Below, one piece after another: positions 765-46,325 of a stretch of 64,000 bases of DNA. The DNA is from Bacilli bacterium (GTDB lineage Bacteria; Bacillota_I; Bacilli_A; RF39; UBA660). The position numbers and the translations under genes were made by a program. The notes below the pieces were generated by a model that saw only the letters and a list, made by a program, of their open reading frames with translations, had not been told where the DNA came from and did no database searches. The stretch lies in the NCBI GenBank assembly GCA_017513865.1, contig JAFWMN010000032.1, positions 16,678 to 80,677 on the forward strand, written 5' to 3'. Numbering within the stretch: position 1 is the first letter of the stretch; every line of letters begins with the position of its first letter.

Positions 765-1127
765 ATGGAAAAAATAGATATTATTAAAAATATCACCGAA
801 AGAACAGGTGGTGATATATATTTAGGTGTAGTAGGAGCTGTTAGAACAGGAAAATCAACCTTTATAAAAAAATTTTTAGAAAATCTAGTTGTCCCAAATA
901 TTGAAGACGAATATGAAAGAAAAAGAACCTTAGATGAAATACCACAATCAGCAAAAGGAAAAACAATTATGACTACCGAACCAAAATTTGTTCCAAGCAA
1001 TGCCACCAAGATAAAAATAGATGACTTTAGTGCCAATGTTAGATTAGTTGACTGTGTTGGGTATATTATCGATGGAGCTAAAGGTTATGAGGACGAAAAT
1101 GGTCCACGAATGGTCCACACCCCTTGG
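765..1127 (+). CDS. spoIVA: Stage IV sporulation protein A (SpoIVA), 5' segment. The gene is interrupted after the Trp codon at 1125..1127 by the ICE.
   Basis: MEKIDIIKNITERTGGDIYLGVVGAVRTGKSTFIKKF...MTTEPKFVP...RLVDCVGY...KGYEDENGPRMVHTPW is near-identical to the SpoIVA N-terminus, including the Walker A motif GAVRTGKST. The reading frame then runs into unrelated sequence and stops at 1145. Confidence 0.9.
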
Positions 1128-1248
1128 GTGCAATTGATTATGTGATACCCCTAAATAATAAATAAAAAATCCCCGATAAAAAAAGGGCTAAAGGCAAAAT
1201 TTCACTTTATTAGTCAAAAGCTAAAAAACAAGAAAGTGAGATTTTTTT

Positions 1249-2238
1249 ATGAAAAATGAAGAAATTTTAGAAAAAGATGAATTAATACCTTTGCTGATAA
1301 AATATGTCAAAGTAAATAGAGTAGTTTTTCCTATTGAAAAGGTTAAGTATTTATCCAATGAAGAAGTTATAGAACTTTTAAAAGAATGTATTGAAAGCAA
1401 AATAATTTATAATCCGAATAATAAGTTAGTAGATGAAGTATCCCTATTAAGGGACGAAGATTTAAAAGTTATATTTAATCTCATGAAAGAAAGTATGAAT
1501 AATATTAATTATGATTATAAGACAGACATAGAAGAGTTAATGATCAATGTTAATTTAAGAAAAAAAGGAAAATCATTTAGTTTTCAAGAACACTTAAAAG
1601 CATTAATTATTGCATTACTTTCAAATCATAGATGGGGTGATAATAATATAAGAGAAAATATGGAAACTATTGATAATATTTTTCATAACTATGATAAGAA
1701 TTATTTAAAGGTAGTTAATCCAAGTATTTTAGTTAATAAGTTAAGAAAAATTCATTGCACTAATCCAATGATAAATAATCAAATGAAAGCATTATCTAAA
1801 AACATAATAGTGTTAGAGAAAATTGAAAAAGATTATGGTAGTCTAGATAAATTTGTTAATAAAGAAATGCCTAATGATATTGCCAACATGTTTAATGATG
1901 GAAAGTATAAGATGATACAAGTTGGACGAGCTTTTTCATACGATTATTTAAAACGAGTAGGTGTTAATACTTGTAAAACGAGTTCGGGACTACAAAGGTT
2001 ATTCGGCAGTCATAGATTAGGAATAGTTAAAAATCATAAAGCGACAGAACAACAGGTATTAAATATTATTAAAAAAATAGCAATATTAAATAACTGTGAT
2101 GAGATAATCGTTGAATCAATTATAGGACAATTTTGCTTATTAAGATCTGCCAATATATGTGGTAAAAACGCTAATTGTGAGAGATGTAAAATAAGAAATT
2201 ATTGTCATTACAATAAGAAAAATGAAGTAAATATTTAA
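1249..2238 (+). CDS. Hypothetical protein (329 aa) with a C-terminal Cys cluster (C-x7-C-x5-C-x2-C-x5-C). Possibly an Fe-S or HhH-GPD-like nucleic-acid enzyme.
   Basis: ORF with RBS. The cysteine spacing CERCKIRNYC resembles the endonuclease III-type 4Fe-4S loop. This is weak. Confidence 0.45.
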   Translation: MKNEEILEKDELIPLLIKYVKVNRVVFPIEKVKYLSNEEVIELLKECIESKIIYNPNNKLVDEVSLLRDEDLKVIFNLMKESMNNINYDYKTDIEELMINVNLRKKGKSFSFQEHLKALIIALLSNHRWGDNNIRENMETIDNIFHNYDKNYLKVVNPSILVNKLRKIHCTNPMINNQMKALSKNIIVLEKIEKDYGSLDKFVNKEMPNDIANMFNDGKYKMIQVGRAFSYDYLKRVGVNTCKTSSGLQRLFGSHRLGIVKNHKATEQQVLNIIKKIAILNNCDEIIVESIIGQFCLLRSANICGKNANCERCKIRNYCHYNKKNEVNI

Positions 2239-2331
2239 CACTAATTGGCTTACTTTTGTTCCACAAAATGATATAATGTAGGTACGAAAGTAAATGTGTG
2301 ATAAGTATGAATAACGAAGAATAATTAAAAG

Positions 2332-2532
2332 ATGATTAAAGTATTAAATCAAATGTTAATATTACTGATATTAGAGAAGAAGATGAATATGGTGATAATA
2401 AATATCATTAAAAAAATAGCAAAGCTTAATATTTGTGAAGAAGTTGTAGTAGAATCAATAATTAATCAATTCAGTTTATTAAGGTCTGCCAATATATGTG
2501 GAAAATATACTGTAATTACAACAAGAAATTAG
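2332..2532 (+). pseudogene. Truncated paralogous fragment of the C-terminus of the 1249..2238 protein
   Basis: IIKKIAKLNICEEVVVESIINQFSLLRSANICGK aligns with IIKKIAILNNCDEIIVESIIGQFCLLRSANICGK of the upstream gene. It then terminates early and lacks the remaining cysteines. Confidence 0.45.
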
Positions 2533-2613
2533 TTCAAAGTTAAAATATTATACATAGCTGTCTTATTAATTTAAGGCAGCATTTTTATGTTAGAAAGAGA
2601 GGTGAAAAAAAAG

Positions 2614-3450
2614 ATGCCTGATTGCAAAGTTATAGCTGTTGCTAATCAAAAAGGTGGAGTAGGTAAAACTACAACTACATTTAATCTAGGAGCCGCCCTC
2701 GCTAGAAATGGCAAAAAAGTATTACTAGTAGATTCTGATCCTCAAGGAGATTTAACAACTTACATGGGTTATGGACCAAATGATTTTGAATTATCACTTT
2801 CTATGTTATTTTTTGATTATATTAGTGATAATCCAGAGTTAGATATTAAAGATAGCATTTTACATCATGACGAAAAAGTAGATTTAATTCCATCAGATAT
2901 AGATTTATCCACTTTTGAAATGATTACTCAAAATGAAATGAGTAGAGAAACTTTAATGAAAAATATGCTCCATAATATAAAAGCTTATTATGACTATATT
3001 ATAATTGATTGTCAGCCTAGTTTAGGTCTATTAACAGTTAATGCTTTATCTATGGCAAATAGCGTTATTATACCTGTACAAACACATTATTTGGATGAGA
3101 AAGGTATGCATGGTTTGATCTCATCCATAAAAAAAGTTAGAGAACGAATAAATCCTGATTTAAAAGTAGATGGTATTCTTCAAACAATGGTTTCATTAAA
3201 TACTAATTTGTTTAAAGAAATGAGTCAGAGATTCAAAGATACTTATGGTACAGTATTTAATATTTATAAAACGCAGATTCCAAGAGCTGTTAAAGCAGCA
3301 GAATCAACATTTACTGGTAAAAGTGTATTCGAATATGATAAAAATGGTAAAGTAACAAAAGCTTATGAAGAACTTGCAAAAGAGGTATTAATGAATCATG
3401 AAAGAGAAAGAAAAAAAGGAACTCGCACGAAAGAAATTTTCAGTAGATGA
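2614..3450 (+). CDS. parA: ParA/Soj-family partition ATPase
   Basis: Deviant Walker [10 protein letters not shown], plus DSDPQG and [10 protein letters not shown] motifs. ATG at 2614 follows a GAGGTG RBS. The ORF track start at 2587 is probably too early. Confidence 0.85.
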
Positions 3451-4372
3451 TTTTTTTACCACACAAGAGCAGAGGGATGATGAAAAGAAAGAAAAAGTTA
3501 ATGAAATTGATATATCATTAATTGATGACTTTCCGAATCATCCTTTTAAAGTGCTCGAAAATGAAGAGTTAAAGAAATTAGCCGAAAGTATATACGATAC
3601 AGGTGTACTTGTACCGACATTAGTGAGACCGAAAGCTGATGGTAGATACGAAATGATCTCTGGTCATAGGAGAAAGAAGGCAAGTGAAATAGCAGGAATA
3701 AAAACTATCCCATGTATTGTAAGAGAACTTACTGATGATGAAGCAACAATAATAATGGTTGATAGTAACTTACAAAGAGAAAAAATACTTCCTAGTGAAA
3801 AAGCATTTGCTTATAAAATGAGAAACGATGCATTAAATCATCAAGGACAAAGAAATGACTTAACTTCTGACCGAATCGGACAAAAGTTAAATTCAAGAGA
3901 TATAATTGCATCAAAAACAGATGACAGTTCAACACAAATACAAAGGTATATCAGATTAACCTTTTTAATACCAGAATTATTAGAAATGGTAGATAATGCT
4001 GCATTAGGGGAAAAGCCATGTATTTCATTTTCTCCAGCAATAGAAATTTCGTATTTACAAGAAGATGAGCAATTAGTACTTCTAGATACAATCGAATTTA
4101 CAGATGCCACACCATCACTTTCTCAAGCTATAAGGCTTAAAAAATTAAGTCAAGAAGCTGCTAAAGAAAATAAAATATTAGATTCATATGTTATTGAAGA
4201 TATTTTAGGTGAAGAAAAACCAAATCAAATTCCAAAACTAAAATTTGATGAATCAAAAATTAGAAAAGTATTACCAAAAGGTATAGACAATAATGATATT
4301 GAAGATTTTGTTGTTAAGTCAATTGAATACTATACAAAACATCTAAGACAGAGAAGTAGTGAGGCGAGATAA
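3398..4372 (+). CDS. parB: ParB/Spo0J-like nuclease-domain partition protein
   Basis: ParB box GHRR ([23 protein letters not shown]). Overlaps the end of parA in operon arrangement. Confidence 0.8.
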
Positions 4373-4541
4373 ATTGTATATACATTTTACGCAATTTCCC
4401 CTCTTATAATCTCCCCTTATACTAACTATTAATTACTAACTGAAAAAACTATATTATATATTTATATATTAATATATAGTATTCGCACATTTTACAAAAT
4501 AAAATAATTAGAATATTATGTTAGCCAAAGAGGTGATTTAG

Positions 4542-5117
4542 TTGTTTAAAAAGATTTTATATTTATTTTTAGTATTTGTTTTAATATTCATGGGTGTTAG
4601 GTATAGTAAGCAAGTTACTCAAAAAAAGAATAATTTATCAAAAAATAAGACACAAATTAGACAAAATAAAAATCAAAAAGAAAAAAAGAATGAAGTAGAC
4701 AGTAAAGGTGCAGAAGAAAAGCAACCTGAAAGTGGTGAACAAAGCACAAATGAAGAAATCAATGAAAAGCAAAGTACTAATAAAACACAACCTTCCAATT
4801 CTTCAGCCAGTAGCCCAAAAGGGATAGGTGGTTCTAATGTACAAAATAATTCAAGTAGTGTTCCTAAAAATGAAAATGTGCAGAGAAATGATGTACAAAC
4901 TGATTCCAATCCTTCAAATGTACAAGAAACCCAAAATCCCGATGAAATAGATACAAATCATATTTTGTATTCTAATCATCATGGGCAAATAACTGAAAAT
5001 TGCGAAGAAAAAGGTTTTAAAATGCAGATTGAAAATCCTGACATGGGTAGTTTTTCATGCGTACCTGTTTATACTGTTTCTGGAAAAATTAAAGGATATT
5101 ATTTAGACATACATTAA
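4542..5117 (+). CDS. Secreted/membrane-anchored low-complexity (Ser/Asn/Gln-rich) protein
   Basis: N-terminal hydrophobic anchor LYLFLVFVLIFMGV followed by a low-complexity region. RBS GAGGTG. Confidence 0.45.
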   Translation: MFKKILYLFLVFVLIFMGVRYSKQVTQKKNNLSKNKTQIRQNKNQKEKKNEVDSKGAEEKQPESGEQSTNEEINEKQSTNKTQPSNSSASSPKGIGGSNVQNNSSSVPKNENVQRNDVQTDSNPSNVQETQNPDEIDTNHILYSNHHGQITENCEEKGFKMQIENPDMGSFSCVPVYTVSGKIKGYYLDIH

Positions 5118-5140
5118 GCAGCTTAAAAGCTGTTTTTTGT
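5118..5140 (+). terminator. Rho-independent terminator (CAGCTT aaa AGCTG followed by a T-run)
   Basis: Read directly from the sequence after the stop at 5117. Confidence 0.45.
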
Positions 5141-5162
5141 TTGAAGTTAGGAGGAAAAATTT

Positions 5163-6989
5163 ATGAGGAAAAAGATATTATTAACGATTTTTACAATGAT
5201 ACTTTGTATGCCTATATTAAGCTTAAAAGTAAAGGCAGCTGATAATGATTCAAATATTAGTTATCAGAAAATAGATGGTGTGTATTTTTATTTGGTAAAT
5301 AATTCTACAGGAGCTGTTGATACAAATCATGTAACTAAATTTTTCTTAAACGGAAAAATTGCTTATTGTATTGAACCAATGGTGGATATTAATACAAGAG
5401 TTTATAGTTCTACTAATGACTGGAATGTTACTGGACTAAGCGTAGAAAATAGAAGATATATTGAAAGAGTTGGATACTTTGGATATGAATATGCAGGTCA
5501 TGGTAATGATAGATATTGGCTTGCTGCTCAGCAATTAATTTGGGAAAAAGTAAATCCAAATGTTTCAGCTAAATTTACTACTGGGGCCAATGGTTCTGGA
5601 GAAGTGATTGACTTATCACCTGAAAGAAATGAAATAATAAATTTGATGAATACCTATGATATGAAAGCATCATTCCATAATACAACTATTGAAGGTTATA
5701 TTGGTGATGAATTTACAGTAGAAGATACAAATGGTGTATTAAATACATTTCAAATTCACTATAACGGAAAACATCAAATTACTCAAAATGGAAATAGTGT
5801 AACTATCAAATTAAACGATAAAGCTATGGGTGATGAAGTGGTAGAGTTTAGAAAATCAAACTACGATAATGAAGTTTCAATTATTTATTACAATGGAGCA
5901 TCACAAAAGCTTGCTTCACTTAGAATATCAGATCCAGCTTCTACATTCTTTAGATTAAAAAGTAAAGGTGCAGATGTTATAGTGGAGAAAAAAGGAGAAA
6001 ATGTAGTATTTGAAAATGCTAGTTATCACTATGAAGAAGTACCTTTAAAAGATACAGTATTTCCTGTTTACGCCAATGAAAATATAACAGATTTAAATGG
6101 GAATACAGTTTATAAAAAATATGATTTAGTTGGTACTTTATCAACAAATGAAGATGGATTTAGTCAGTTAAATGATATTTATTATGGTAAATATTTTACA
6201 GTAGAAGGAGAGACAGATCCTAAGCATGTAATAGATGATAAAAAGTACGAATTTGAAATTACAAAGGGAGACTTAATTGATGGCAAATTAGTTAAAACTC
6301 TCAATTTTAAAAATTTTATGAAGAAAGGTACATTTGAATTAACTAAGACAGATTTAGTTACAGGAGAAGTTATACCAAATACAGGAATTCAAATATTTAC
6401 AGAGGAAGATAGACTAATCTTTACTGGGGTAACAGATGAAAATGGTAAAATAGTTATTACTGATATTCCTGTTGGCGTTAAACTTTATATGATTGAGAAA
6501 AATCCAGCTACAGGTTATCAAATCACAGATGAAAAGATTTTCTTTGAAATAACTGAAAACGGTGAAATAGTAAAAGCCAACATGACAAATGAAAAAATTA
6601 AAGGTACACTAGATTTTACAAAATTAGATATATCAAACGACAAACCTATACCTAATACATTAATTGAAATTTATGATGAAAAAGACAATCTAATTTTTAG
6701 TGGTAGAACTGATGAAAACGGTAAAATAATAATCGAAAACTTAGAGTATGGAAAGTACTATATTTTAGAAAAAGAAGCTCCAAAAGGATATAAACTTAAT
6801 CCTGAAAAAATGTGGTTCGAGATAAAAACAGATGGTGAAATAGTTAAAGCTGTAATGAAAGATGAACTTGAAATAATCGAAGTACCTAACACTAAAAAGA
6901 ATGAAAAATATGAAGTAATAATAGGTGGAACTATTATTCTTGTTTTAGGAATAGGAGTTGTATTATTTGCTACTAAAAAAATTAAATAA
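5163..6989 (+). CDS. Cell-wall-anchored surface adhesin with repeated CnaB/prealbumin-like domains and a C-terminal sorting signal
   Basis: Signal peptide, then repeated G(K)YY..EK.AP.GY units typical of CnaB-type domains. The C-terminal VPNTK motif is followed by a hydrophobic helix and a KKIK tail. Confidence 0.65.
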   Translation: MRKKILLTIFTMILCMPILSLKVKAADNDSNISYQKIDGVYFYLVNNSTGAVDTNHVTKFFLNGKIAYCIEPMVDINTRVYSSTNDWNVTGLSVENRRYIERVGYFGYEYAGHGNDRYWLAAQQLIWEKVNPNVSAKFTTGANGSGEVIDLSPERNEIINLMNTYDMKASFHNTTIEGYIGDEFTVEDTNGVLNTFQIHYNGKHQITQNGNSVTIKLNDKAMGDEVVEFRKSNYDNEVSIIYYNGASQKLASLRISDPASTFFRLKSKGADVIVEKKGENVVFENASYHYEEVPLKDTVFPVYANENITDLNGNTVYKKYDLVGTLSTNEDGFSQLNDIYYGKYFTVEGETDPKHVIDDKKYEFEITKGDLIDGKLVKTLNFKNFMKKGTFELTKTDLVTGEVIPNTGIQIFTEEDRLIFTGVTDENGKIVITDIPVGVKLYMIEKNPATGYQITDEKIFFEITENGEIVKANMTNEKIKGTLDFTKLDISNDKPIPNTLIEIYDEKDNLIFSGRTDENGKIIIENLEYGKYYILEKEAPKGYKLNPEKMWFEIKTDGEIVKAVMKDELEIIEVPNTKKNEKYEVIIGGTIILVLGIGVVLFATKKIK

Positions 6990-7572
6990 GAAGATGGTTA
7001 TTATAATCGGCTTTTTATTTGTATTAATTGGTGCCGTAATTATTTATTGTTATTGCTCTTCTAAAATAATAGAAAAAAATATAGAAGAAAAGTCTATTGA
7101 AAGATTTTATTCTAATAATAAAAAGGCAGAAAGAAGTGAAGATATTTCTGATAGCAAAATAGATAATAATGTTATTAATTATATTGGAGTTATAAAGATT
7201 CCTAAAATAAATTTGGAAAAAGGATTTACAGCAAAAGACGATAAAAACAATGATGTAGAAAAAGGAATTAAAATATTAGAAAAATCTGATTATCCGAACA
7301 AAGATAAAGGTAATGTAATACTTGCATCACATTCAGGAACTGCAAGTATTTCATACTTTAAAAATCTTTATAAACTTTCAAATGGTGACGAGGTTTTAAT
7401 TATCTATAATGGTAATACTTATAACTATAAAGTTTCATCAAAATATAAAATAGATAAAACTGGATATGCAAAAATCAAACGAGATAATTCAAAAAGAACT
7501 CTTACATTAATAACATGCGAGGGTGATGATAAACAAATAGTAGTTATATGTGAACTTAACAATATTACATGA
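6958..7572 (+). CDS. Sortase (dedicated, likely class B/C) for the upstream adhesin
   Basis: N-terminal TM helix, conserved His (LASHSG) and the catalytic TLITCEG motif. Overlaps the adhesin gene. Confidence 0.7.
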   Translation: MYYLLLKKLNKKMVIIIGFLFVLIGAVIIYCYCSSKIIEKNIEEKSIERFYSNNKKAERSEDISDSKIDNNVINYIGVIKIPKINLEKGFTAKDDKNNDVEKGIKILEKSDYPNKDKGNVILASHSGTASISYFKNLYKLSNGDEVLIIYNGNTYNYKVSSKYKIDKTGYAKIKRDNSKRTLTLITCEGDDKQIVVICELNNIT

Positions 7573-7585
7573 ATGAGGTGGTAAA

Positions 7586-7792
7586 TTGAAAAATAATAAT
7601 TATATGAACAAGGTAAGACTATTAAAGAAAATAATAGATGCTGGATATAATACAAGAGAAAAGATAATAAAAATGAATATGAGTGATGTTAATAGACTTA
7701 AAGGTTTAACAATACAAGATTTTCATTTGATTAATGAATTAATTCCAATGATAAAAAGTAGAAAACTATTAGAGTTTTTAACTGAAATGTAA
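7586..7792 (+). CDS. Small hypothetical protein (68 aa)
   Basis: ORF with a GAGGTGG RBS. Confidence 0.35.
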   Translation: MKNNNYMNKVRLLKKIIDAGYNTREKIIKMNMSDVNRLKGLTIQDFHLINELIPMIKSRKLLEFLTEM

Positions 7793-7802
7793 AAAAATTT
7801 TT

Positions 7803-7830
7803 AAGCACTCTTAAATTGAGTGCTTTTTAA
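7803..7830 (+). terminator. Rho-independent terminator (AAGCACTC ttaaatt GAGTGCTT TTT)
   Basis: Perfect 8-bp stem followed by a T-run. Confidence 0.55.
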
Positions 7831-7838
7831 CATTTTAA

Positions 7839-8183
7839 ATGAAGGGAGATGGTTTAATGCCATTTAAAAAGAGAAAACCTCCAATTAAAGTTGAGGTGTC
7901 AAAAGAAAATTTTAATAAGCTAATAGAGTTAGTATATACTGCAAATGAGATTAATAGTGATGATGTAAAAGAAAAAGCAAATGTATTGAAAGAAAAACTA
8001 TTAAAATATAGTATTCCAACTGAAAAGGAAAATGTTATTATTAGATTATTTCCTTATGAAGCAGAGACTATTATTTATATTTTATTTTCAAGCTCAAAGG
8101 ATTATAAAGTAAACAATAACTATTACAATACTTTGCTTGAAACTAGAAAAAATTTAAAAGAAAGAGGTGAGAGTAATGCTTAA
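7839..8183 (+). CDS. Hypothetical protein (114 aa)
   Basis: ORF with RBS GAAGGGAG. Confidence 0.4.
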   Translation: MKGDGLMPFKKRKPPIKVEVSKENFNKLIELVYTANEINSDDVKEKANVLKEKLLKYSIPTEKENVIIRLFPYEAETIIYILFSSSKDYKVNNNYYNTLLETRKNLKERGESNA

Positions 8184-8520
8184 TCAAGTTGTTTTAGTTG
8201 GTAGACTTGTTACTGAGCCCGAACTTCATAAAACTGAAAACGAAAAGGAAAATGCAAGATTAGTACTTGCTGTTCCTAGAAGTTATAAGAATGAAAATGG
8301 AGAATATGAAACAGATTTTATACCTTGTACAACTTGGGGAACAATTGCACATAATACAGTAGAATACTGTAAAAAAGGTGATTTGATTGGAATTCGTGGA
8401 AGGATTGAAACTTATAATTTTGAAGTAGAAGATGGAAAAAAATATATAACAGAAGTTGTCGCCGAAAAAATTACATTTTTATCTTCTAAGAAAAAAGAAG
8501 AACCACAGGAATCTAGATAA
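8176..8520 (+). CDS. ssb: Single-stranded DNA-binding protein, short ICE/plasmid type
   Basis: MLNQVVLVGRLVTEPEL...TDFIPCTTWG...GDLIGIRGRIETYNFE OB-fold signature. Start ATG at 8176 after a GAGGTGAG RBS. Confidence 0.8.
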   Translation: MLNQVVLVGRLVTEPELHKTENEKENARLVLAVPRSYKNENGEYETDFIPCTTWGTIAHNTVEYCKKGDLIGIRGRIETYNFEVEDGKKYITEVVAEKITFLSSKKKEEPQESR

Positions 8521-8556
8521 ATTTCATATTAGTTAAAAAATGAAAGGTATAAAGTT

Positions 8557-8892
8557 ATGGAAAAGATAGATAATGAAAAAATAAAATCAAAAGCTATTAA
8601 AAAACTAACAGATGAATATTTTGAATTTTACAATAGTTTAAAAAATAAAAGTAAATCTGAAATATTAATAAAAGCTTATGAACTTGTTTGTAAAAATGAA
8701 ATAAAAGAATTATATATGTATGATGATAATAAATTGTCTGATTATAAAGCTATTTTAAAAATGAAAAAACCTTTAGATGAACTTTATAAGGTTTGGCTAT
8801 CGTTTGATGACACAATTTATATGACTATGAAGGAAAACTTACATGTATATATGACAAGAAATAACAAAGTAAATGATAGAATAGAGAGATAG
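8557..8892 (+). CDS. Hypothetical protein (111 aa)
   Basis: ORF only. Confidence 0.4.
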   Translation: MEKIDNEKIKSKAIKKLTDEYFEFYNSLKNKSKSEILIKAYELVCKNEIKELYMYDDNKLSDYKAILKMKKPLDELYKVWLSFDDTIYMTMKENLHVYMTRNNKVNDRIER

Positions 8893-8893
8893 T

Positions 8894-22913: not shown

Positions 22914-22914
22914 G

Positions 22915-38571: not shown

Positions 38572-38695
38572 TTTATTTTTCTTATATTATTTAAAATAGT
38601 TTTATTAGTTAGTACATAATTGATTTTGTCAACTATAATTTAGTTGAATTTAATTACTTTATGTATTTCTAATTAATAAGGAAGGATGGCGAAAA

Positions 38696-39553
38696 TTGAG
38701 TGATATACTCAACATGCATATGACATTGGAAAGTAAAAAAATGAGCAATTACTATAAAAAATTTAAAAGTGGTAAAATAAGTATTGAAGAATTTGAAAAA
38801 GCGAAAAAAGAAGGTTATTTATTTGATTTTCCTACATATCTTGAACACGATGATATACTAAAGCAAATTAAATATTTTGTAAGTCAAATATCAAAAAAAG
38901 ATGTAGCTAATGCATTTCTCTATAGTTTAACAACAAGAAGACTTGAATATAGATCAATTTTAGGTTCATATTGGTATGCCGTAGCTTTATTTCCACACAA
39001 AAAACATAATCGTTATGGAACTGATGGATTTTGCGATATATGTGATTGGATGGATATGCCAAAAGATACACCTGAAAATGAAAAAAAATGGTATCATTAC
39101 AAATATAATATTTATAATTATGATAGATATAGAGTTGGGGGCATTGTACATACAAATGTCAATTATGTAATGTTTGATTTGCGTGAATTTCTAAAAATGC
39201 CAAAAGTTGAGCCAACACAAAAAGACAAAGAAATACTTTTGAAAACACTTCATCTTATTGATGATTTGAAATTAAATAACAAAGCTGGAACATATAGAGA
39301 TTACATTGTGAAAAATAAATTGTTCCCTACTAATAAAAATGAAATCGCTCAATTTTTAAATATACTAGGTGTCTGTGGAGTTTTATCAAGCGATATGTAT
39401 CCATGTTATGATGAATATTATGTTCCTGCGGATGGTTCTAGAGACCCAATTGAGTATTTAAATGATTTTCGCTATCCATTGAATAGATGGAAAGTAGCTG
39501 ATGGTATCAATAAAAAACGCTTTAAAAAAGTATTTGGTTTTGAATATAGATAA
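38696..39553 (+). CDS. Hypothetical protein (285 aa), possibly an orphan immunity or accessory protein
   Basis: ORF with a TTG start. Position in the polymorphic-toxin locus only. Confidence 0.35.
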   Translation: MSDILNMHMTLESKKMSNYYKKFKSGKISIEEFEKAKKEGYLFDFPTYLEHDDILKQIKYFVSQISKKDVANAFLYSLTTRRLEYRSILGSYWYAVALFPHKKHNRYGTDGFCDICDWMDMPKDTPENEKKWYHYKYNIYNYDRYRVGGIVHTNVNYVMFDLREFLKMPKVEPTQKDKEILLKTLHLIDDLKLNNKAGTYRDYIVKNKLFPTNKNEIAQFLNILGVCGVLSSDMYPCYDEYYVPADGSRDPIEYLNDFRYPLNRWKVADGINKKRFKKVFGFEYR

Positions 39554-39723
39554 TATTAAGCAAGATATTGAATATAGTCTCATCAATTTGTTTTCTTCAT
39601 TTACACTAAAAAGATAACTAATATTTGCAAAAGGAATATTATTATAAAACACACAAAATAGCAAAAAATTAAAGAATCTTTGATATTTATTCAAAGATTC
39701 TTTAATATTTATGAAAGGAAATT

Positions 39724-40026
39724 ATGATAGAAATAGTATTAAATTGGTTTATACCTTTTATTTTAACTGCTATATTTGGATATATAGCAAAAGAACTTAA
39801 AGAAAATAAAAAACATGATGAAGCCATGCGTAACAGCATGGTTTTATTATTACGTAGTCAAATAACAGGAAAATGCGAAAATTATTTAAGAATGGGTTTT
39901 CTACCAGATTATGCAAGGAGTTGCTTAGAAGATTTATATAAGCAATATGAATCTTTAGGAGGAAATCATGGAGTAAATAAATTGGTTGATCAAACTTTTA
40001 ACCTAAAACCATTAAAGGAGGATTGA
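39724..40026 (+). CDS. Small protein with an N-terminal TM helix (100 aa)
   Basis: ORF with a GAAAGGAAA RBS. Upstream of the holin/endolysin pair. Confidence 0.35.
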   Translation: MIEIVLNWFIPFILTAIFGYIAKELKENKKHDEAMRNSMVLLLRSQITGKCENYLRMGFLPDYARSCLEDLYKQYESLGGNHGVNKLVDQTFNLKPLKED

Positions 40027-40030
40027 TACT

Positions 40031-40282
40031 ATGGAAATTTATTATATGTCTATTGTTGCAATGATGACTTTTGTCTTTGGTGCAATAAACAAAGCATATT
40101 TTGAAAGTATGCCAAATAGATTTATACCAATTCAAAATGTTTTTATTGGATTAATATCAGGAATTATTTGTTATTTCGGTCATTTAGAAAGTGATTTGTT
40201 AGAATCTATTGTTTTATGCATAATGGCAGCTATGAGTTCAGGAGGAGTTGCCGATATGAAGGATATTGTTAAACGTGATTAA
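40031..40282 (+). CDS. Putative holin (83 aa, 2-3 TM helices)
   Basis: AAAGGAGG RBS, hydrophobic helices and a charged C-terminus. Overlaps the start of the GH25 lysin gene. Confidence 0.5.
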   Translation: MEIYYMSIVAMMTFVFGAINKAYFESMPNRFIPIQNVFIGLISGIICYFGHLESDLLESIVLCIMAAMSSGGVADMKDIVKRD

Positions 40283-41294
40283 AAAAGGTATAGATGTATC
40301 TAAATGGCAAGGGATTATAGACTGGAATAAAGTTAAAAATAGTGGTATTGAATTTGCTATTATAAGAATTGGCTTTGGTAAATTTATTAACCAAAAAGAC
40401 ACCTGTTTTGAAAGAAATTATAGAGAAGCTAGAAATAGTGGTATACCTATAGGTGTATATCATTATAGCTATGCTACTTCTGTAGAAGAGGCAAAAGAAG
40501 AAGCAAAATGTGTTGTAAGATGGTTAAATGGCAGAAAACTAGATTTACCTGTTTATTTCGATATAGAAGATAAATCTCAGAGTTCGTTAAATAAAAATAT
40601 ATTAAATTCTATGTGTGAAGCTTTTTGCAATATTATTGAAAAAGCTGGTTATTGGGCCGGAATATATTCAAACAAATATTGGGCCACATCAATTATTGAT
40701 GGTGCAAAATTAGGTAGTAGATATACGTATTGGATTGCACAATATAATAATGAATGCACTTATAAAGGAAATTATGATATATGGCAATATAGCTCCTCTG
40801 GTAGTGTAGATGGAATAATAGGAAATGTAGATATGAATTATATGAATAGAGATTTAATTTCAGAAATCAACAATCCTAACGACAAATCTAATATAGAAAA
40901 TAATAACAAAGAGAACAATATACTTGATTTAAGCAATTATAATGGAAAATCAATTGTAGATGGATTAAAAAGTATAGGGGTAGATAGTTCTTTTGAAAAC
41001 AGAAGTATTATATATAGAAATATGGGGTTTATTGATGAATATATTGGAAGTAGTATTCAAAATATAAATCTTCTAAATAGACTAAAACATAAATCTATAA
41101 ATACTTTCTATCCTAAATATAATGGAAATAGTGATTCTATAGTAGATGCCTTAAAGTCATTAAATGTTGATAGTTCTATAAATAATAGAAAAATAATAGC
41201 AAAAATTAATAACATCGATAATTATACGGGAAGTGCTATTCAAAATATACAATTACTAAGATTATTAAAAAATGGCCAATTAAAGAAAAAATAA
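40266..41294 (+). CDS. GH25 muramidase (endolysin-like, no signal peptide) with two about 45-aa C-terminal putative cell-wall-binding repeats
   Basis: Start KKGIDVSKWQGIIDWNKVKNSGIEFAIIRIGFG is the GH25 signature. Internal repeats LKSIGVDSS.../LKSLNVDSS.... Confidence 0.8.
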   Translation: MLNVIKKGIDVSKWQGIIDWNKVKNSGIEFAIIRIGFGKFINQKDTCFERNYREARNSGIPIGVYHYSYATSVEEAKEEAKCVVRWLNGRKLDLPVYFDIEDKSQSSLNKNILNSMCEAFCNIIEKAGYWAGIYSNKYWATSIIDGAKLGSRYTYWIAQYNNECTYKGNYDIWQYSSSGSVDGIIGNVDMNYMNRDLISEINNPNDKSNIENNNKENNILDLSNYNGKSIVDGLKSIGVDSSFENRSIIYRNMGFIDEYIGSSIQNINLLNRLKHKSINTFYPKYNGNSDSIVDALKSLNVDSSINNRKIIAKINNIDNYTGSAIQNIQLLRLLKNGQLKKK

Positions 41295-41858
41295 AAGTAT
41301 ATAATAATTTTAATACGCTTTTTTCGATATAAATATTAAATTAAATAATATAATAACAAAAATCATTTTTTATAAAGTAAATTATTTCTTATATTCTGTA
41401 AATAATTAGATATATTATTCGCTTTATTTTATAGACTATTATAAAATTATTGGTAACTATATGTTATATATATTTCTTTCAGACAAAAAAGTACACCATT
41501 CGGAACACTTATATAAAAAAAAGAGAATATTGAATATAATAAAGGCCATCAGCAATTACAAGGGTATGTTAAAGGACTATTGTAATGAAGAAAAAGGGGA
41601 TTTATCCTTTTTCATCGGCGAATCTAACATATACTTTGTATAATGTTCCGTTCATTGTAATTGCAATAGGTGGTTACTATGAACGAAAAATGTTATTTGT
41701 TATGCTGTTTGCTATGTGATAACTCAAGAAGTTTGTCTTCTAGGGCTGTGTCTTTTACTCATTTTAAGAGTAGGAGATGCAGCCCTCTTTTTTTGTGCTC
41801 TTTTTTAGTTAGAGGACCACCTATCCTTTCAATTAAAAAAATTGAAAGGAGTTACGAG

Positions 41859-42317
41859 GTGGATAAAAGACCAATAAGAAGAAAGTATAGAGATAATCCT
41901 TATTTACTAGAAAGCATTAAAGAAAAGAATATATATATTATTAAATTTAATGATATAAATGGAAAACATGAAGTAGTAGTAGACAAGGATATTTTTGATT
42001 TATTTGATAAAAATGAGAAATATGAAAACGCTAGATATTTTGAATATTCTAAACATTTATTTCATAATGAAATTAACTATTCGCAAATTAAATCTAATTA
42101 TTCTTTAGAAGATGAGGTTATAAATAATCTATCTCTTAAAGAATTAAAGTACACTATTGAAATGCTGCCTGATATTCAGAAAAGAAGAATTAAAAAATAT
42201 TATTTTGAAGAGAAAACTTTAGAAGAAATTGCTATGGAAGAAGGCTGTTCAAAAGTTGCAATTAAGTATTCTATTGATAGTGCATTGAGAAAAATATCAA
42301 AAATTTTCAAAATATGA
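41859..42317 (+). CDS. Sigma-70 region-4-like regulator, copy B (GTG start)
   Basis: Paralog of 28611..29078 (RRKYRDNPY...LPDIQKRRIKKYYFEEKTLEEIAMEEGCSKVAIKYSIDSALRKI). AAAGGAG RBS before GTG at 41859. The ORF-track start at 41670 gives an implausible Cys-rich extension. Confidence 0.55.
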   Translation: MDKRPIRRKYRDNPYLLESIKEKNIYIIKFNDINGKHEVVVDKDIFDLFDKNEKYENARYFEYSKHLFHNEINYSQIKSNYSLEDEVINNLSLKELKYTIEMLPDIQKRRIKKYYFEEKTLEEIAMEEGCSKVAIKYSIDSALRKISKIFKI

Positions 42318-42346
42318 CTTAACTTTTTCACGATTTCGCTACTAAA

Positions 42347-42382
42347 GGGTGAGAGTGTAAAAAACTTCTCACCCTATTTTTT
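42347..42382 (+). terminator. Rho-independent terminator (GGGTGAGAG N11 TCTCACCC followed by a T-run)
   Basis: Read directly from the sequence. Confidence 0.55.
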
Positions 42383-42388
42383 AGGTTT

Positions 42389-42600
42389 TGTTCTTTGAAA
42401 ATTTAGTGTCATTTATCAAATACGTTCTTATTACTTTGAGCACATTAACAAGTACGCTTGCGAATAATACTTGGTTATAAAAATAAAGTGGCTCTTTATT
42501 ATGTAATGACGAGTAATAAGTATAATGATACTTCTACCCAGCCACAGACTCAACCAATGGGGGTAGTCCTGAATAGAAACAGGAAAGTGAAATTCTTATG
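42389..42600 (+). repeat. 212-bp conserved leader repeat, copy B. Its ATG opens only a 3-codon ORF (ATG AAA CTG TAA).
   Basis: Paralog of 29168..29379. Confidence 0.85.
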
Positions 42601-42729
42601 AAACTGTAAAGCCGGCAGTTGTTTGATAAATCCCAACTGAGGGAATGAGAAATATATCAGATATGATTAAGTAAAAAATATCCAAGACTTTTTGTCTTGG
42701 TTTATACATATGAAAGGTTAGTGAAAAAA

Positions 42730-42921
42730 ATGAAAGAATATCAAATAGATTTAAAATTAATTTTATCTAGCAAATTTTTACAAAGTGGGAAAAATAAGAA
42801 GGAAATAAGAGATAAAGTTACTAATGTCATAATAGAAGCTTTAAAAAATGATAAGACTTTAAAAATATTATTTAATAATGAAATTCCTGTATATATAATG
42901 GATATAAGTGAAAATGAATAG
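42730..42921 (+). CDS. Candidate antitoxin (63 aa) overlapping the MazF-like gene
   Basis: Small ORF whose stop overlaps the start of the toxin gene. Shows no recognisable antitoxin fold. Confidence 0.3.
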   Translation: MKEYQIDLKLILSSKFLQSGKNKKEIRDKVTNVIIEALKNDKTLKILFNNEIPVYIMDISENE

Positions 42922-43276
42922 AAGAGAAATTAGAAGAGGAGATATTTATACAGCAATTTTAGAATTGGGAATTGGCTCTGAACAAACTGGGATTAGACCT
43001 GTACTTATCATTCAAAATAATGTAGGAAATATATATAGTAATACAACTATAATCGCACCTATTTCATCATCATATACAAAACATGATATTCCAACTCATG
43101 TTTTTTTAAATAATAAAGATTACTTATATAACAGTTCAATTATTTTATTAGAACAAATACGAGTAATATCTAAAAATAGATTAGGTCACTACATAGCACA
43201 TCTAAGCGATAAAAAAATGAAAGATGTTGACAATGCAATATTAAAGTCATTGGGAATAAAAAAAAACAAAATTTAA
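42908..43276 (+). CDS. PemK/MazF-family mRNA interferase toxin
   Basis: RRGDIYTAILELGIGSEQTGIRPVLIIQNNVGNIYSNTTIIAPISS is characteristic of the MazF/PemK family. Confidence 0.65.
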   Translation: MKMNRREIRRGDIYTAILELGIGSEQTGIRPVLIIQNNVGNIYSNTTIIAPISSSYTKHDIPTHVFLNNKDYLYNSSIILLEQIRVISKNRLGHYIAHLSDKKMKDVDNAILKSLGIKKNKI

Positions 43277-43359
43277 AAATATGAGGAGGCAGAGCATTAT
43301 AGAAAAATGTAATTTTTATAAAATAAATAACATAGAATTGGAAGTAGGGAGGAATATTT

Positions 43360-43578
43360 ATGTATAAAACAATAGAGTTTTACGATAATAATGGCTGTGA
43401 CTTAAAAGAGGTACTAAAAAGTTGTATATATAAATATTACATTGAAAATAAAAATTTACTAATAAACAAAAAAAGCAAACTTGAAACGGACGAGAAAAGT
43501 AGTATAATAAAAGCGACTAATAAAGTGAAAAAGTTGTCTAATGAAAGGAGTAAGAAATGTACCCTAAGTACAAATTAG
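43360..43578 (+). CDS. Small protein (72 aa) directly upstream of and overlapping the serine recombinase gene. Candidate recombination directionality factor.
   Basis: Strong RBS GGGAGG. Position only. Confidence 0.3.
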   Translation: MYKTIEFYDNNGCDLKEVLKSCIYKYYIENKNLLINKKSKLETDEKSSIIKATNKVKKLSNERSKKCTLSTN

Positions 43579-45143
43579 GAAAGACAACATTTAAAATAGC
43601 CATTTATATAAGGCTTTCAAGAGAAGATGGAGATGATTTAGAATCTGAAAGTGTCACAAATCAGAGAAGCTTATTACTTGGTTATTTGAAAGCACAAAAT
43701 TTAGAACATGTCGATATATATATTGACGATGGATACACAGGAACAAATTTCGAACGTCCAGAATTCAAAAGAATGCTTGAAGATATAAAAAATGGGAAAA
43801 TAAATATGGTTATTACAAAAGATCTTTCAAGATTAGGCCGTGACCATATAATGACAGGTTACTATGTTGAAACCTATTTTCCTGAAAACGATGTTAGATA
43901 TATTGCAGTAAATGATGACATAGACACATTCTACGAAACAAGTGGTTCTGATATGATGCCGTTTAGATTAAGTATGAATGACATGTATGCGAAAGATATA
44001 TCTAAAAAAGTTCGCTCAAATCTACTTCAAATGAAAAAAGATGGAAAATTTTGTGGTAGTTCTGCCTCATATGGATATATGAGAGATCCATTAGATAAAC
44101 ATAAATTAATACCAAATCCAGAAACTGCACCAGTAGTAAAAAGGATATTTGACTTATATGTTGCAGGATATGGTAGTTCCCAAATCGCTGAAATATTGAC
44201 TAGAGAAGAATTACCTACGCCAATTATGTATAAACATTCTGGTGCTAAATTGAATAGATTCAATCATCCTGAAATATGGAAACATACTACAGTTAGCAAT
44301 ATCATTAAAAATAGAGTATATATTGGAGATTTAATTCAGCACAAATTTCAAAAAATCAATTATAAAATTAAGAAAAGAAAAGCAGTACCAGAAAATGAAT
44401 GGTTTATAAAAGAAAATGCACATGAGCCACTTATTGATAAGAAAACTTTTCAAATAGCACAATCCATAAAAGATTCTTCTAATAATTATGATCCAAATCG
44501 TAGAAAAGTAAATTACGTCTTATCTGATTTAGTTTTTTGTAAAGATTGTGGTGCTAGAATGAGCATTAGTTATGATAAAAAAAGAGATAGAACCACAATG
44601 AATTGTAATAACTATCGCAAATTTAGCAAATATGATATATGCTTTTCACATTATATTAACTATAAAAAACTAGAAAAGACAGTATATGACAAACTAAGAA
44701 GTATGGCTAGTAAGTATGATAACAATAAAGAAGAATTTGAAAGAATTATTAAAAATGAATATACAGATCCTAAAGCTGAAAAAATAAAAAAGATAGATGA
44801 GTTAAACATTAAGATTACAGATTTGAAAAGAAAACAAGATTCATTATATGACGATAAGTTTAATAATATTATTACTGTGGAAACATATCAGAGATTATTT
44901 AATAATGCTGAAGAAGAAATTAATATTGCAAAGAGTAAACTAAAAATATTAAAAAAAGAAGTATCTAGTATTCAAAAAGAAAATTCTGACTATAACGAAT
45001 ATTTAGAAATAGTAGAAAATTTCTTAAAAATGAAAAATCCTACTAAAGAAATAATGAATAGATTAATAGAAAAAATCTATATAACAAAAGATAAGACATT
45101 AGAAATTCATTATCGAATAAAGAAAAATGAACTTACAGTATAA
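43557..45143 (+). CDS. Large serine recombinase (TndX/TnpX/SpoIVCA/SprA-like)
   Basis: Resolvase-type N-domain with catalytic Ser in IYIRLSREDG and the DGYTGTNFERPEF...ITKDLSRLGRD motif. 528 aa with a Cys-containing and coiled-coil C-terminal region. Its 3' end is 69 bp from the element junction. Confidence 0.9.
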   Translation: MYPKYKLGKTTFKIAIYIRLSREDGDDLESESVTNQRSLLLGYLKAQNLEHVDIYIDDGYTGTNFERPEFKRMLEDIKNGKINMVITKDLSRLGRDHIMTGYYVETYFPENDVRYIAVNDDIDTFYETSGSDMMPFRLSMNDMYAKDISKKVRSNLLQMKKDGKFCGSSASYGYMRDPLDKHKLIPNPETAPVVKRIFDLYVAGYGSSQIAEILTREELPTPIMYKHSGAKLNRFNHPEIWKHTTVSNIIKNRVYIGDLIQHKFQKINYKIKKRKAVPENEWFIKENAHEPLIDKKTFQIAQSIKDSSNNYDPNRRKVNYVLSDLVFCKDCGARMSISYDKKRDRTTMNCNNYRKFSKYDICFSHYINYKKLEKTVYDKLRSMASKYDNNKEEFERIIKNEYTDPKAEKIKKIDELNIKITDLKRKQDSLYDDKFNNIITVETYQRLFNNAEEEINIAKSKLKILKKEVSSIQKENSDYNEYLEIVENFLKMKNPTKEIMNRLIEKIYITKDKTLEIHYRIKKNELTV

Positions 45144-45212
45144 TAAAAAGTGAGTTGCCGATGAGCAATTTTTAAAAAGTCGAAAGGGTATCACGAAAAC
45201 AGGTCATACTGG

Positions 45213-46325
45213 TATGAAGAAGCTATACCGTTTGTCGAAGCTGCCGAAATAGGAACTGAAAAAGTTATCAAAGATCATTCCAGCATTGGTATTCTAATAA
45301 CAACCGACGGCTCGATAGGAGAATTTGAAAGAAAAGATTATATTGAAGCTGAAACTAAAGTAGCAGAGGAACTAAAAGAAATAGGCAAACCATATATAAT
45401 AATTTTAAATTCTACTCATCCGATGCTTCCGGAAACTGAAAATATTGCCCAAAATCTCAAAGACGAATATAAAGTACCAGTACTTCCAATGAATATTGAT
45501 AACATGAGTGAAAGAGATGCCTATAACATATTAAGAGAAGCTTTATATGAATTTCCAGTAAACTCTATAAATATTGATATGGCCGATTGGGTTGCTTGTT
45601 TAGAACCAAATAACAAATTAAAAAAAGCTTATATTGATATTATTAAAGAAAGTATAGAACCAATTGATAAAATAAGAGATGTCGATACTATTACAAACAA
45701 ACTAGAGGAATGCGAATATATTGAAAAAGCTTATCTTTCAGCCGTCGATACCGCAACCGGAGATATTAGAGTAACTTTAAAAACCCCAAACCATTTATAT
45801 GAAGAAGTATTAAAAGATATAATAGGCGTTGAAATAAATAATAAATCACAACTATTAAGTTTATTTCAAGAATATAATGAAGCTAAAAATGAATATGATC
45901 AAATAAAAGAAGCCTTAAAAATGGTTAAAACAACGGGCTATGGGGTAGCTTCACCAACTTTATCTGATATGACCTTAGACACCCCAGAAATTATCAAACA
46001 AGGAAGTAGGTATGGTATTAAATTAAAAGCTGTAGCTCCATCAATTCATATGTTTAGGGTAGATGTAGAATCAACCTTCGAACCAATTATCGGTTCAGAA
46101 CTACAAAGTAAAGAGCTTATTAATTATCTCATGAAAGACAAAGAAACTGATAGTGAAAATATTTGGAAAAGTGAAATCTTTGGTAGAAGTTTAGATGTTA
46201 TAGTTAAAGAGGGAATACAAGCAAAACTATCATTAATGCCAGAATCAGTTAGATATAAATTAAAACAAACATTATCAAAAGTAGTAAATAAAGGCTCAAA
46301 TAATTTATTTGCTATTGTCATATAG
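45213..46325 (+). CDS. spoIVA: SpoIVA, 3' segment (370 aa). In-frame continuation after the insertion.
   Basis: YEEAIPFVEAAEIGTEKVIKDHSSIGILITTDGSIGEF...KMVKTTGYGVASPTLSDMTLDTPEIIKQGSRYGIKLKAVAPSIHM...IQAKLSLMPESVRYKLKQTL is collinear with the B. subtilis SpoIVA middle and C-terminus. Confidence 0.9.
   Translation, partial: YEEAIPFVEAAEIGTEKVIKDHSSIGILITTDGSIGEFERKDYIEAETKVAEELKEIGKPYIIILNSTHPMLPETENIAQNLKDEYKVPVLPMNIDNMSERDAYNILREALYEFPVNSINIDMADWVACLEPNNKLKKAYIDIIKESIEPIDKIRDVDTITNKLEECEYIEKAYLSAVDTATGDIRVTLKTPNHLYEEVLKDIIGVEINNKSQLLSLFQEYNEAKNEYDQIKEALKMVKTTGYGVASPTLSDMTLDTPEIIKQGSRYGIKLKAVAPSIHMFRVDVESTFEPIIGSELQSKELINYLMKDKETDSENIWKSEIFGRSLDVIVKEGIQAKLSLMPESVRYKLKQTLSKVVNKGSNNLFAIVI

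Follow-up and report, generated by a model that had tools for sequence, protein, structure and literature searches.

We analyzed a 64,000-nucleotide stretch of DNA from a Bacilli bacterium (assembly GCA_017513865.1, contig JAFWMN010000032.1, positions 16,678 to 80,677; hereafter the window) and found its spoIVA gene to be split after codon 121 by a 44-kb integrative conjugative element (ICE). Recombination between the two ends of the element is predicted to restore an uninterrupted gene for a 491-aa SpoIVA. The recombination unit at the right end, a large serine recombinase (LSR) gene with a small open reading frame (ORF) upstream of it, recurs at the same codon in other hosts, and the elements carrying it apparently form a widespread and undescribed family. 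By analogy with known intervening elements, and from a conserved CATA-type -10 box, we think it on balance likely that excision of the element in the mother cell rebuilds spoIVA during sporulation.

The 5' half of the gene lies in an ORF (765-1145, +) that starts MEKIDIIKNITERTGGDIYLGVVGAVRTGKS, with the N-terminus MEKIDII and the Walker A motif, and remains SpoIVA-like through ...ENGPRMVHTPW at position 1127, after which it reads VQLIM and stops within the element. A 126-aa product identical to that of the 5' ORF is present in NCBI (MBR3199530.1, from a "Bacilli bacterium" metagenome-assembled genome [MAG]), and its 90% cluster has 30 members, the majority of the 15 listed being 126 aa long. 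Joining positions 765-1127 to 45213-46325 gives 363 nt and 1110 nt plus the stop codon, and thereby a protein of 121 + 370 = 491 aa that covers the three Pfam domains of SpoIVA completely (SpoIVA_ATPase 1-237/237, E = 1.3e-108; SpoIVA_middle 1-179/179; SpoIVA_C 1-76/76). Intact SpoIVA proteins of 489-497 aa, forming more than 100 clusters at 77-97% identity, align over 100% of the joined protein, and relatives with an unbroken spoIVA have the same gene order, der-spoVIF-spoIVA-hbs-cca-dnaD-nth-pbp-recU. An earlier note on this DNA, made from the letters alone, had placed the split after codon 121, the resumption at 45213 and an LSR gene 69 bp from the junction, had seen no frameshift or deletion, had called the insert a full conjugative ICE and had proposed a comparison with related genomes. 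Its coordinates and arithmetic proved correct throughout: the join is in frame with all three domains complete; the LSR gene (43557-45143) stops 69 nt before the right junction at 45213; the relaxase, coupling protein, VirB4-type ATPase, PrgI, CHAP hydrolase, LSR and attachment (att) sites are all present; and the spoIVA genes of the relatives are unbroken and lie in conserved synteny.

Because the insertion point lies inside the ATPase domain of SpoIVA, the integrated state cannot make the protein. Both halves are nevertheless free of frameshifts and stops in the window and in seven other hosts; the 370-aa frame is intact in all eight backgrounds. The interrupted coding sequence has the marks of a mother-cell sporulation gene, being preceded by a sigmaE-like site (714-741). 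In Bacillus subtilis, spoIVA is an early, mother-cell, sigmaE-dependent gene, and the sigmaE consensus reads kmATATT-N14-CATAcAhT. The upstream gene spoVIF is in turn preceded by a sigmaK-type site, AC-N17-CATATATTA (433-441), in agreement with the B. subtilis sigmaK consensus. The match at spoVIF suggests that mother-cell promoter motifs have been kept in this uncultured lineage.

The ends of the element were compared base by base. As attL and attR share only a 3-nt core, TGG (a Trp codon; 1125-1127 and 45210-45212), the element boundary is fixed to within 3 nt and the insert measures 44,085 bp. The attP site was reconstructed in four elements (the window element and those at loci L012, L015 and L016) and is predicted to read GGTATCAC-N15-TGG-N14/15-GTGATACC, with N14 in the window, where the full sequence is GGTATCACGAAAACAGGTCATACTGGGTGCAATTGATTATGTGATACC. 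It forms an imperfect 50-bp palindrome whose center falls on or beside TG(G), and the spacing from GTGATACC to the core is equal within 1 nt in six elements (window, L012, L015, L016, L098 and L112). L099 is the most divergent element for which the two ends could be compared (its LSR is 58% identical), and there the arms have changed in concert, to GGTAGTGC and GCACTACC; co-variation of this kind marks a site that is recognized by a symmetric dimer of a protein.

The empty target is conserved because the SpoIVA protein is conserved. Among the hosts, attB reads ...ACnCCnTGG|TAYGAnGA..., for the codons Thr-Pro-Trp|Tyr-Glu (at greater length Thr-Pro-Trp|Tyr-Glu/Asp-Glu), with the crossover within TGG; the predicted attB of the window contains CACACCCCTTGGTATGAAGAAGC. 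Its right half holds GCTATACC, which lies five bases nearer to the core than the GTGATACC motif of attP, an offset that fits the published LSR model of attB and attP. No convincing counterpart of the attP arm motif was found in the left half of attB. Taken together, the att sites are short and show imperfect dyad symmetry around a central crossover, and the predicted attP has the architecture typical of an LSR; recombination of attL with attR would restore the 491-aa gene without a scar. Just before the crossover, the spoIVA coding sequence has two copies of AATGGTCCAC as a direct repeat with a distance of 11 nt (1098-1118); the repeat was not seen in the other hosts and is probably a coding coincidence.

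The recombinase next to the junction has the domains of an LSR: its N-terminal resolvase domain, which holds the catalytic Ser, is followed by a recombinase domain and a zinc ribbon, and the C-terminal region is long. The R19-L20-S21 motif around the catalytic residue is invariant in 20 homologues, and a DUF4368 match is marginal (25.4 bits against a cut-off of 25). Among solved structures, the catalytic domain is nearest to TnpX (E = 2.5e-27) and the full-length protein to SprA of the SPbeta prophage (E = 4.5e-20). The protein was full-length, at 528 aa, in all ten copies translated, and 520-531 aa long in more distant lineages. Directly upstream of the LSR gene, a small ORF with a conserved N-terminus was found in all nine lineages whose sequence was read; L113 is the sole lineage without a separate small ORF called at this position. 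The small ORF is a candidate for a recombination directionality factor or another partner of the LSR.

Two promoter-like sites accompany the unit. In sigma-70 and terminator scans of the window, promoter-like sites were no commoner than in shuffled sequence, and of the sites so predicted we use only the one at 43481-43508, for its conservation in relatives. A CATAnnnT box lies 26-33 nt before the small-ORF ATG in eight of the nine lineages, within surrounding sequence that has diverged. The base rate of the box in the window is 0.0013 per nt, and CA precedes just 3.7% of its TAnnnT hexamers. The window has 15 GGAGG-ATG starts, and a CATAnnnT at -36 to -26 precedes just two of them, those of spoIVA and the small ORF; among plus-strand ORFs of at least 80 aa such a box is found only at spoVIF, spoIVA and the RHS gene. 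The box of the small ORF shares its geometry with those of spoIVA and spoVIF. In B. subtilis, a CATA-type -10 is the hallmark of sigmaE and sigmaK promoters, and the conserved box is a hint that the small ORF may be read by a sporulation sigma factor. The second site (43481-43508), inside the small ORF, is a match to the sigma-70 consensus and is kept as TTTAAA-N16-TATAAT in L012, L011 and L013. The pair suggests a possible SPbeta-like split between a constitutively made recombinase and a regulated partner.

The same junction is not confined to the window. At least 20 metagenome contigs, drawn from different studies and assemblers, encode the identical LSR protein, always adjoining the 3' part of spoIVA, and the junction is identical to the base across the contigs with the window element. 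Finding one junction on at least 20 independent contigs excludes chance as its source. The last 3.8 kb of the window element are 98.6-100% identical across these contigs, whereas the 3' part of spoIVA is ~80-81% and the downstream genes 74-82% identical; from this difference between element and flanks, the same element has entered at least four host species at one site. The comparison of the element end with the host flanks thus points to the horizontal transfer expected of an ICE. Still more contrasting values were obtained for L011 and L012, whose integrative and mobilizable elements (IMEs) are 99.9% identical in spoIVA genes of ~73% identity. We had considered this pair for a test of vertical co-divergence, as evidence of selection on the split gene, and rejected it, the identities indicating horizontal transfer. 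Overall, the elements spread horizontally between species.

An alignment of LSR homologues, scanned over one genome per species, gave 80 loci. All six loci that have at least 58% LSR identity and are long enough to judge (L011, L012, L013, L015, L016 and L017) abut the 3' part of spoIVA from residue ~121, and none of the scanned homologues at 45% identity or less lies at this codon. A protein search added six homologues (55-72% identity) with the same arrangement, bringing the total to 12 of 12 lineages at 55% or more, in hosts whose SpoIVA C-terminal parts are mutually 56-99% identical. The pattern, a tight integrase clade at the same position in multiple independent events, is the one used elsewhere to recognize regulated gene integrity (PMC7192596), and it differs from the multiple targets of TndX/TnpX-like DUF4368 transposases. 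As far as these loci indicate, the LSR clade is dedicated to a single spoIVA codon, the sole target observed.

The cargo between the junctions varies widely. The window insert is a complete conjugative element of 44,085 bp. The L012 insert (10,201 bp) is of the mobilizable type, with a Mob_Pre gene present as two adjacent ORFs and a cation-efflux transporter. The contents of the remaining inserts are as follows: L015 (11,102 bp) has one 2317-aa surface protein, the small ORF and the LSR; L113 (~10.3 kb) one 2609-aa protein and the LSR; L098 (~6.7 kb) a signal peptidase, a 1258-aa surface protein, the small ORF and the LSR; L112 (~5.9 kb) one 1278-aa Big_3 protein, the small ORF and the LSR; L099 (3,598 bp) three small ORFs and the unit of small ORF and LSR; and L016 (3,507 bp) one Fic protein, the small ORF and the LSR. 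In all five elements with both junctions mapped, the joined spoIVA encodes 490-492 aa. The recombination unit, consisting of the small ORF, the LSR and the att arms, is thus combined with cargo of very different kinds, and some of the inserts are too small to be mobile by themselves. A single giant surface-type protein of 1258-2609 aa is nearly the sole cargo in four inserts (L015:2170-9123, L113:1878-9707, L112:5973-9809 and L098:5587-9363).

The hosts are low-G+C bacteria, labeled in their records as uncultured Bacilli, Tenericutes or Mycoplasma, and come from rabbit, deer, ruminant and human gut. Further sporulation genes were found near the elements or in their hosts: spoVIF in the window, GPR and SpoIIP in L114, and SipL in L117. 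The hosts would fit the orders RFN20, RF39 and ML615J-28 or their neighbors; these uncultured orders are reportedly a mixture of predicted spore-formers and non-spore-formers (PMC10868615). Genomes binned as "Tenericutes" or "Mycoplasma sp." (L011-L017) carry spoIVA, and in the window host, a close relative of theirs, spoVIF and a class A penicillin-binding protein are present as well.

Natural empty sites were found for two of the hosts. The joined SpoIVA predicted for the L012 host (human-gut MAG UMGS855) is present as an exact, intact 492-aa protein on 209 contigs, and that of the L015 host has an exact match on one contig, L115. Between L115 and the flanks of L015, 548 of 548 and 2681 of 2683 positions are identical, and the overlap between the two alignments is the TGG core and no more. 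Precise excision restores a full-length gene in silico, and these empty sites of the L012 and L015 hosts equal the predicted joins; integration and excision hence appear to be precise, with near-identical strains existing with and without the element. The joined proteins of the L016 and L099 hosts were not found in a collection of 15 billion proteins, while the LSR of the L099 type is on 22 contigs. The missing joins for these two hosts and for the window could mean that the element is fixed there, or they could result from thin sampling.

According to the model that we prefer, the recombination unit would be activated in the sporulating mother cell, likely through the CATA-type promoter before the small ORF, and the small ORF would act as a directionality factor for LSR that is expressed from a sigmaA-like promoter of its own. 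Excision would then rebuild spoIVA in time for sigmaE-driven expression, whereas the forespore would retain the integrated copy and the spore would pass the element on. During growth, this excision reaction may be governed by regulators of the element itself and feed conjugation. We infer that excision is regulated because a tight integrase clade occupies the same domain position in many independent events, as discussed above, and because the transfer-less inserts keep an intact recombination unit. Retention of the unit without transfer genes has been used as an argument also for skin and gin (PMC5595907, PMC6957869).

Several observations weigh against this model. SpoIVA is required early, from engulfment, leaving little time for a repair, and LSRs of the TnpX/TndX type can excise without a directionality factor. 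The small ORF belongs to no recognized family, showing no significant Pfam or NCBIfam match; the TAnnnT hexamer within its CATA box would suit sigmaA as well, and in DNA this rich in AT the -35 matches are weak. The exact joined 491-aa protein of the window was not found in the protein collection, which thus offers no empty site of the same strain, and the nearest unbroken genes to the window spoIVA belong to other species at 83-88% nucleotide identity. A search for the excised circle in metagenome contigs of the Joint Genome Institute (JGI), using exact attP sequences (degenerate for the L012 type), gave no matches. The insertions also look recent, with elements 99-100% identical in hosts of 73-86% identity, and intact halves therefore say little about selection after the insertion. 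The 209 contigs with the empty allele show the element to be polymorphic in at least one host species, arguing against an obligatory developmental role. Finally, one copy is damaged: in L002 (11654-11700, equal to 45224-45267 of the window), 44 bp are deleted right after TGGTATGAAGA, by which the host half of attR is lost and the rebuilt gene is frameshifted, either as a dead-end, irreversible insertion or by an assembly error. A generic attP pattern was also searched for in the JGI contigs, and its 10 matches were rejected as chance, given their G+C of 29-58% and the lack of an LSR.

Much of this could be expected if spoIVA were merely a conserved att site that is dispensable in growth. Under such plain insertional inactivation, carriers would be asporogenous or nearly so and excision would occur only at a low, vegetative level. 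The L002 copy, which cannot be repaired in frame, agrees with this explanation, as do the recent horizontal arrival of the elements, the empty alleles within a species and the failure to find attP or a same-strain attB for the window host. Many LSR elements disrupt non-essential genes (PMC10083194), and the hosts, if the orders guessed from their labels are right, belong to gut Bacilli with repeated loss of sporulation (PMC10868615). Inactivation does not readily explain, however, why inserts of 3.5-6 kb without transfer genes have kept the LSR at full length, together with the small ORF and with att arms that are still symmetric, unless excision matters, nor does it predict both gene halves intact in eight host backgrounds and a CATA-type box kept before the small ORF. 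Moreover, in published work all experimentally tested LSR elements in mother-cell sporulation genes excise during sporulation. We regard inactivation as the main rival explanation, possible but rather unlikely. That the host had already ceased to sporulate, leaving the split spoIVA as a decaying relic, seems very improbable: apart from the general tendency of gut lineages to lose sporulation, only the L002 deletion speaks for it, and neither half has a frameshift or stop in the window and seven other hosts, the neighboring spoVIF is intact with a sigmaK-type promoter, the spoIVA of close relatives is intact in the same synteny, and one exact codon hit in 12 LSR lineages is unlike decay. We give practically no credence to an assembly or binning error by which a mobile element and spoIVA were fused into a chimeric contig. 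While all data are metagenome assemblies and one host, L011, has a double interruption on a single contig, the junctions agree to the base among different studies and assemblers, they are found also in six GTDB representative MAGs and on contigs of 0.2-1 Mb, and they have the features expected of an LSR site.

The sporulation-coupled model has one extension, in which the element couples its own transfer to sporulation. Excision would then both rebuild spoIVA and free a transfer-competent circle in the dying mother cell, which would serve as a cost-free donor for conjugation, with the forespore keeping the integrated copy. All element genes are oriented with spoIVA and no terminator is predicted from its 5' part to the first of them, so that a sigmaE-driven transcript would read into the element. 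We consider this extension doubtful, and clearly less probable than mother-cell excision itself.

The spoIVA gene is the target of a second LSR clade, unrelated to the first and specific for another codon. In L011, the 3' part has a further break, which follows ...APSIH close to codon 413 and has the core CATAT (L011:8231-15345). This second insert, of ~7.1 kb, encodes a 546-aa LSR and a small resolvase, and joining its flanks restores ...APSIHMIKVEVESTFEP... in frame. Its LSR is 31% identical to that of the window over 314 alignable N-terminal residues. LSRs of the second family are 546-551 aa long, and two further members (L116:3537-11628, 77% identical, and L117:7383-11643, 49%) lie at the same second site in other hosts; in L117, SipL adjoins spoIVA in the clostridial arrangement. 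The spoIVA of L011 is thus in three pieces on a single contig, hit by both families. The database gene call P0363 fuses an LSR of the second type to the C-terminal domains of SpoIVA.

The 44-kb element has the gene set of an ICE, namely a relaxase, coupling protein, VirB4-type ATPase, mating-pair proteins, integrase and att sites (Table 1), at a G+C of 24-30% that is uniform through the insert and the adjoining flanks. The first element gene (1249-2238) has no significant Pfam or NCBIfam match, and a homologue is present at the left end of the 10.2-kb L012 element (L012:1565-2563). The first terminator predicted is at 2557-2580, with none separating this gene from the spoIVA 5' part, and the gene could therefore be transcribed from the spoIVA promoter. 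The cysteine motif of its product is reminiscent of an Fe-S cluster loop, and an ORF at 2332-2532 partly duplicates its C-terminus. Near the right end, the antitoxin of a probable toxin-antitoxin pair is assigned from its position. The RHS and ankyrin proteins differ among copies with near-identical right ends: the window and L001 have versions of 2132 and 261 aa, L002-L004 versions of 2057-2113 and 299 aa, and an additional 271-aa ORF is found in L002-L004, L006 and L010. Judged from these copies, the toxin cargo seems to be swapped faster than the element backbone.

Table 1. Features of the split spoIVA gene and its intervening element (positions in the window)
Feature	Position	Strand	Description
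spoVIF	461..703	+	80 aa; Pfam SpoVIF E = 1.9e-22; directly upstream of spoIVA
Putative mother-cell (sigmaE-type) promoter of spoIVA	714..741	+	TCATATA-N13-CATATATT; -10 box 31 nt before ATG; predicted from sequence
spoIVA 5' part	765..1127	+	121 codons including Walker A GAVRTGKS; last residues ...PRMVHTPW; frame extends into element to 1145
attL	1125..1149	+	core TGG, then element arm GTGCAATTGATTAT-GTGATACC; GTGATACC at 1142-1149
Intervening element	1128..45212	+	44,085 bp; complete ICE; all real genes co-oriented with spoIVA
First element gene	1249..2238	+	329 aa; no family match; C-terminal C-x5-C-x2-C-x5-C
ParA, ParB partition-type genes	2587-3450, 3398-4372	+	family matches
Surface adhesin	5163-6989	+	thioester and SpaA domains; domain matches
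Sortase	6958-7572	+	family match
DNA-processing module	8167..13290	+	single-stranded DNA-binding protein (SSB) 8167-8520; DUF3848; Toprim/DUF3991 primase-like 8894-9832; MbpA-like accessory protein 10303-10632; MobA/VirD2 relaxase 11271-12593 (PF03432); DUF3801 12571-13290
Mating-pair module	13501..22887	+	VirD4/TraG coupling protein 13501-15300 (PF02534); VirB2-like pilin 15301-15609 (weak match); PrgI 18740-19117; VirB4-type ATPase 19083-21422 (PF19044 TraG P-loop, PF12846 AAA_10); CHAP cell-wall hydrolase 21400-22887
Eukaryote-like Ser/Thr protein kinase	16605-17864	+	inside mating-pair module, between coupling-protein and VirB4 genes
Cargo	29377..42317	+	Gp10_C-domain protein; RHS-repeat toxin 31367-37765 (2132 aa); ankyrin protein 37786-38571; GH25 muramidase 40266-41294; sigma-70 region-4 protein 41670-42317
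Probable toxin-antitoxin pair	42697..43276	+	74-aa ORF (probable antitoxin); MazF/PemK toxin 42908-43276
Promoter-like site before small ORF	43310..43338	+	TAATTTT-N14-CATAGAAT
Conserved small ORF	43360..43578	+	72 aa (41-72 aa elsewhere); overlaps LSR start; N-terminus MYxxxE[FY][FY]...L.[DE].L[KL]SCIxxYY
Sigma-70-type promoter-like site	43481..43508	+	TTGAAA-16-TATAAT, 11/12 matches; inside small ORF, just before LSR start; consensus match only
LSR	43557..45143	+	528 aa; PF00239 Resolvase, PF07508 Recombinase, PF13408 Zn-ribbon; catalytic Ser in YIRLSRED
attR	45187..45212	+	element arm GGTATCAC-N15, then core TGG
spoIVA 3' part	45213..46325	+	370 codons and stop; begins YEEAIPFVEAAEIG; frame 1

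Elements that interrupt sporulation genes are known from skin in sigK, SPbeta in spsM, gin in gerE and yin in yabG (PMC4191935, PMC5595907, PMC10747680, PMC5025042). The earlier note had held that spoIVA is not a known host gene for such elements, and we found no mention of it as a target in full-text searches or in the main text of the papers on the C. difficile skin element, SPbeta, gin, yin, TIGER, recombination-unit exchange and the LSR atlas; a 2013 article in Molecular Microbiology that treats vfbin and vrin lay outside this scope. The gene would be added to the few for sporulation that are known to be split by excisable elements. Among the proteins of coat morphogenesis, SpoIVA alone is shared by all spore-formers (bioRxiv 10.1101/2022.02.25.481979). 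The window element would be a natural, self-transmissible conjugative element in such an interruption, and its cargo-only relatives illustrate the movement of a recombination unit between backbones; a single-site clade of TnpX-like LSRs and a gene targeted twice are further distinctions from the known systems. On the doubtful extension to sporulation-coupled transfer, spoIVA would more broadly be a hotspot of programmed rearrangement in uncultured gut Firmicutes, used by two LSR clades at two codons and sometimes by both in one gene. At present, MAGs of uncultured gut lineages are scored for sporulation capacity by the genes they contain (PMC10868615), and such pipelines would mis-score a spoIVA in two or three pieces; the split gene could be a reversible switch or a first step to the loss of sporulation. 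The LSR, its 50-bp attP and the conserved attB also provide a new, well-defined site-specific pair, and the arm co-variation in L099 may be useful in studies of LSR specificity.

The comparative finding is in our assessment solid and broad, if mechanistically not surprising; its key functional claim is a likely one, drawn largely from analogy. By mechanism and logic, the spoIVA element belongs with skin/sigK, SPbeta/spsM, vfbin/spoVFB, vrin/spoVR, gin/gerE and yin/yabG. Most targets of the intervening elements described earlier act late in sporulation. As with skin in sigK (B. subtilis and C. difficile; SpoIVCA/CD1231 and CD1234), an LSR element interrupts a mother-cell gene, with the recombinase gene beside one junction and att sites at both ends, the restoration leaves no scar, and relatives of very different sizes occupy the same site. 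The skin target is a late sigma factor, however, whereas spoIVA encodes an early structural ATPase of the sigmaE regulon that coat assembly requires; skin is a defective prophage and the window insert a complete conjugative element, with an LSR of a different clade, nearest to TnpX and SprA. The likeness is seen in the DNA, and from it we infer developmental excision at spoIVA. SPbeta in spsM (SprA/SprB) is similar in being an active mobile element that needs excision both for its own transfer and for the repair of the gene, and possibly in its two-promoter layout, with a sigmaA-like promoter for the LSR and a separate one for a small upstream gene; SprA is, moreover, the closest full-length relative of solved structure. 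It differs in being a phage, and the small ORF at spoIVA is not recognizably SprB and its regulation only predicted. The minimal 3.5- to 3.6-kb inserts of L016 and L099 resemble gin in gerE (Bacillus cereus ATCC 10987; GirC/GirX), a non-phage element of cargo and recombination unit, although the target gene and the recombinase clade are others and the spoIVA family also has a self-transmissible member. The TnpX and TndX recombinases (Tn4451, Tn5397; DUF4368 clade) are linked to the window LSR by its catalytic domain, by the marginal DUF4368 match and by the conjugative element in Firmicutes, but they use many target sites (PMC10083194), in contrast to the single codon in 12 of 12 lineages. A known counterpart of an LSR-driven conjugative element in a sporulation gene is an engineered one, ICEBs1 equipped with the recombination unit of SPbeta, which integrated in spsM (Suzuki et al. 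2019, PMC6957869). That construct is artificial and demonstrates that units and backbones are exchangeable; the elements described here are natural and target spoIVA, and their ICE, IME and cargo-only forms suggest the same exchange in nature.

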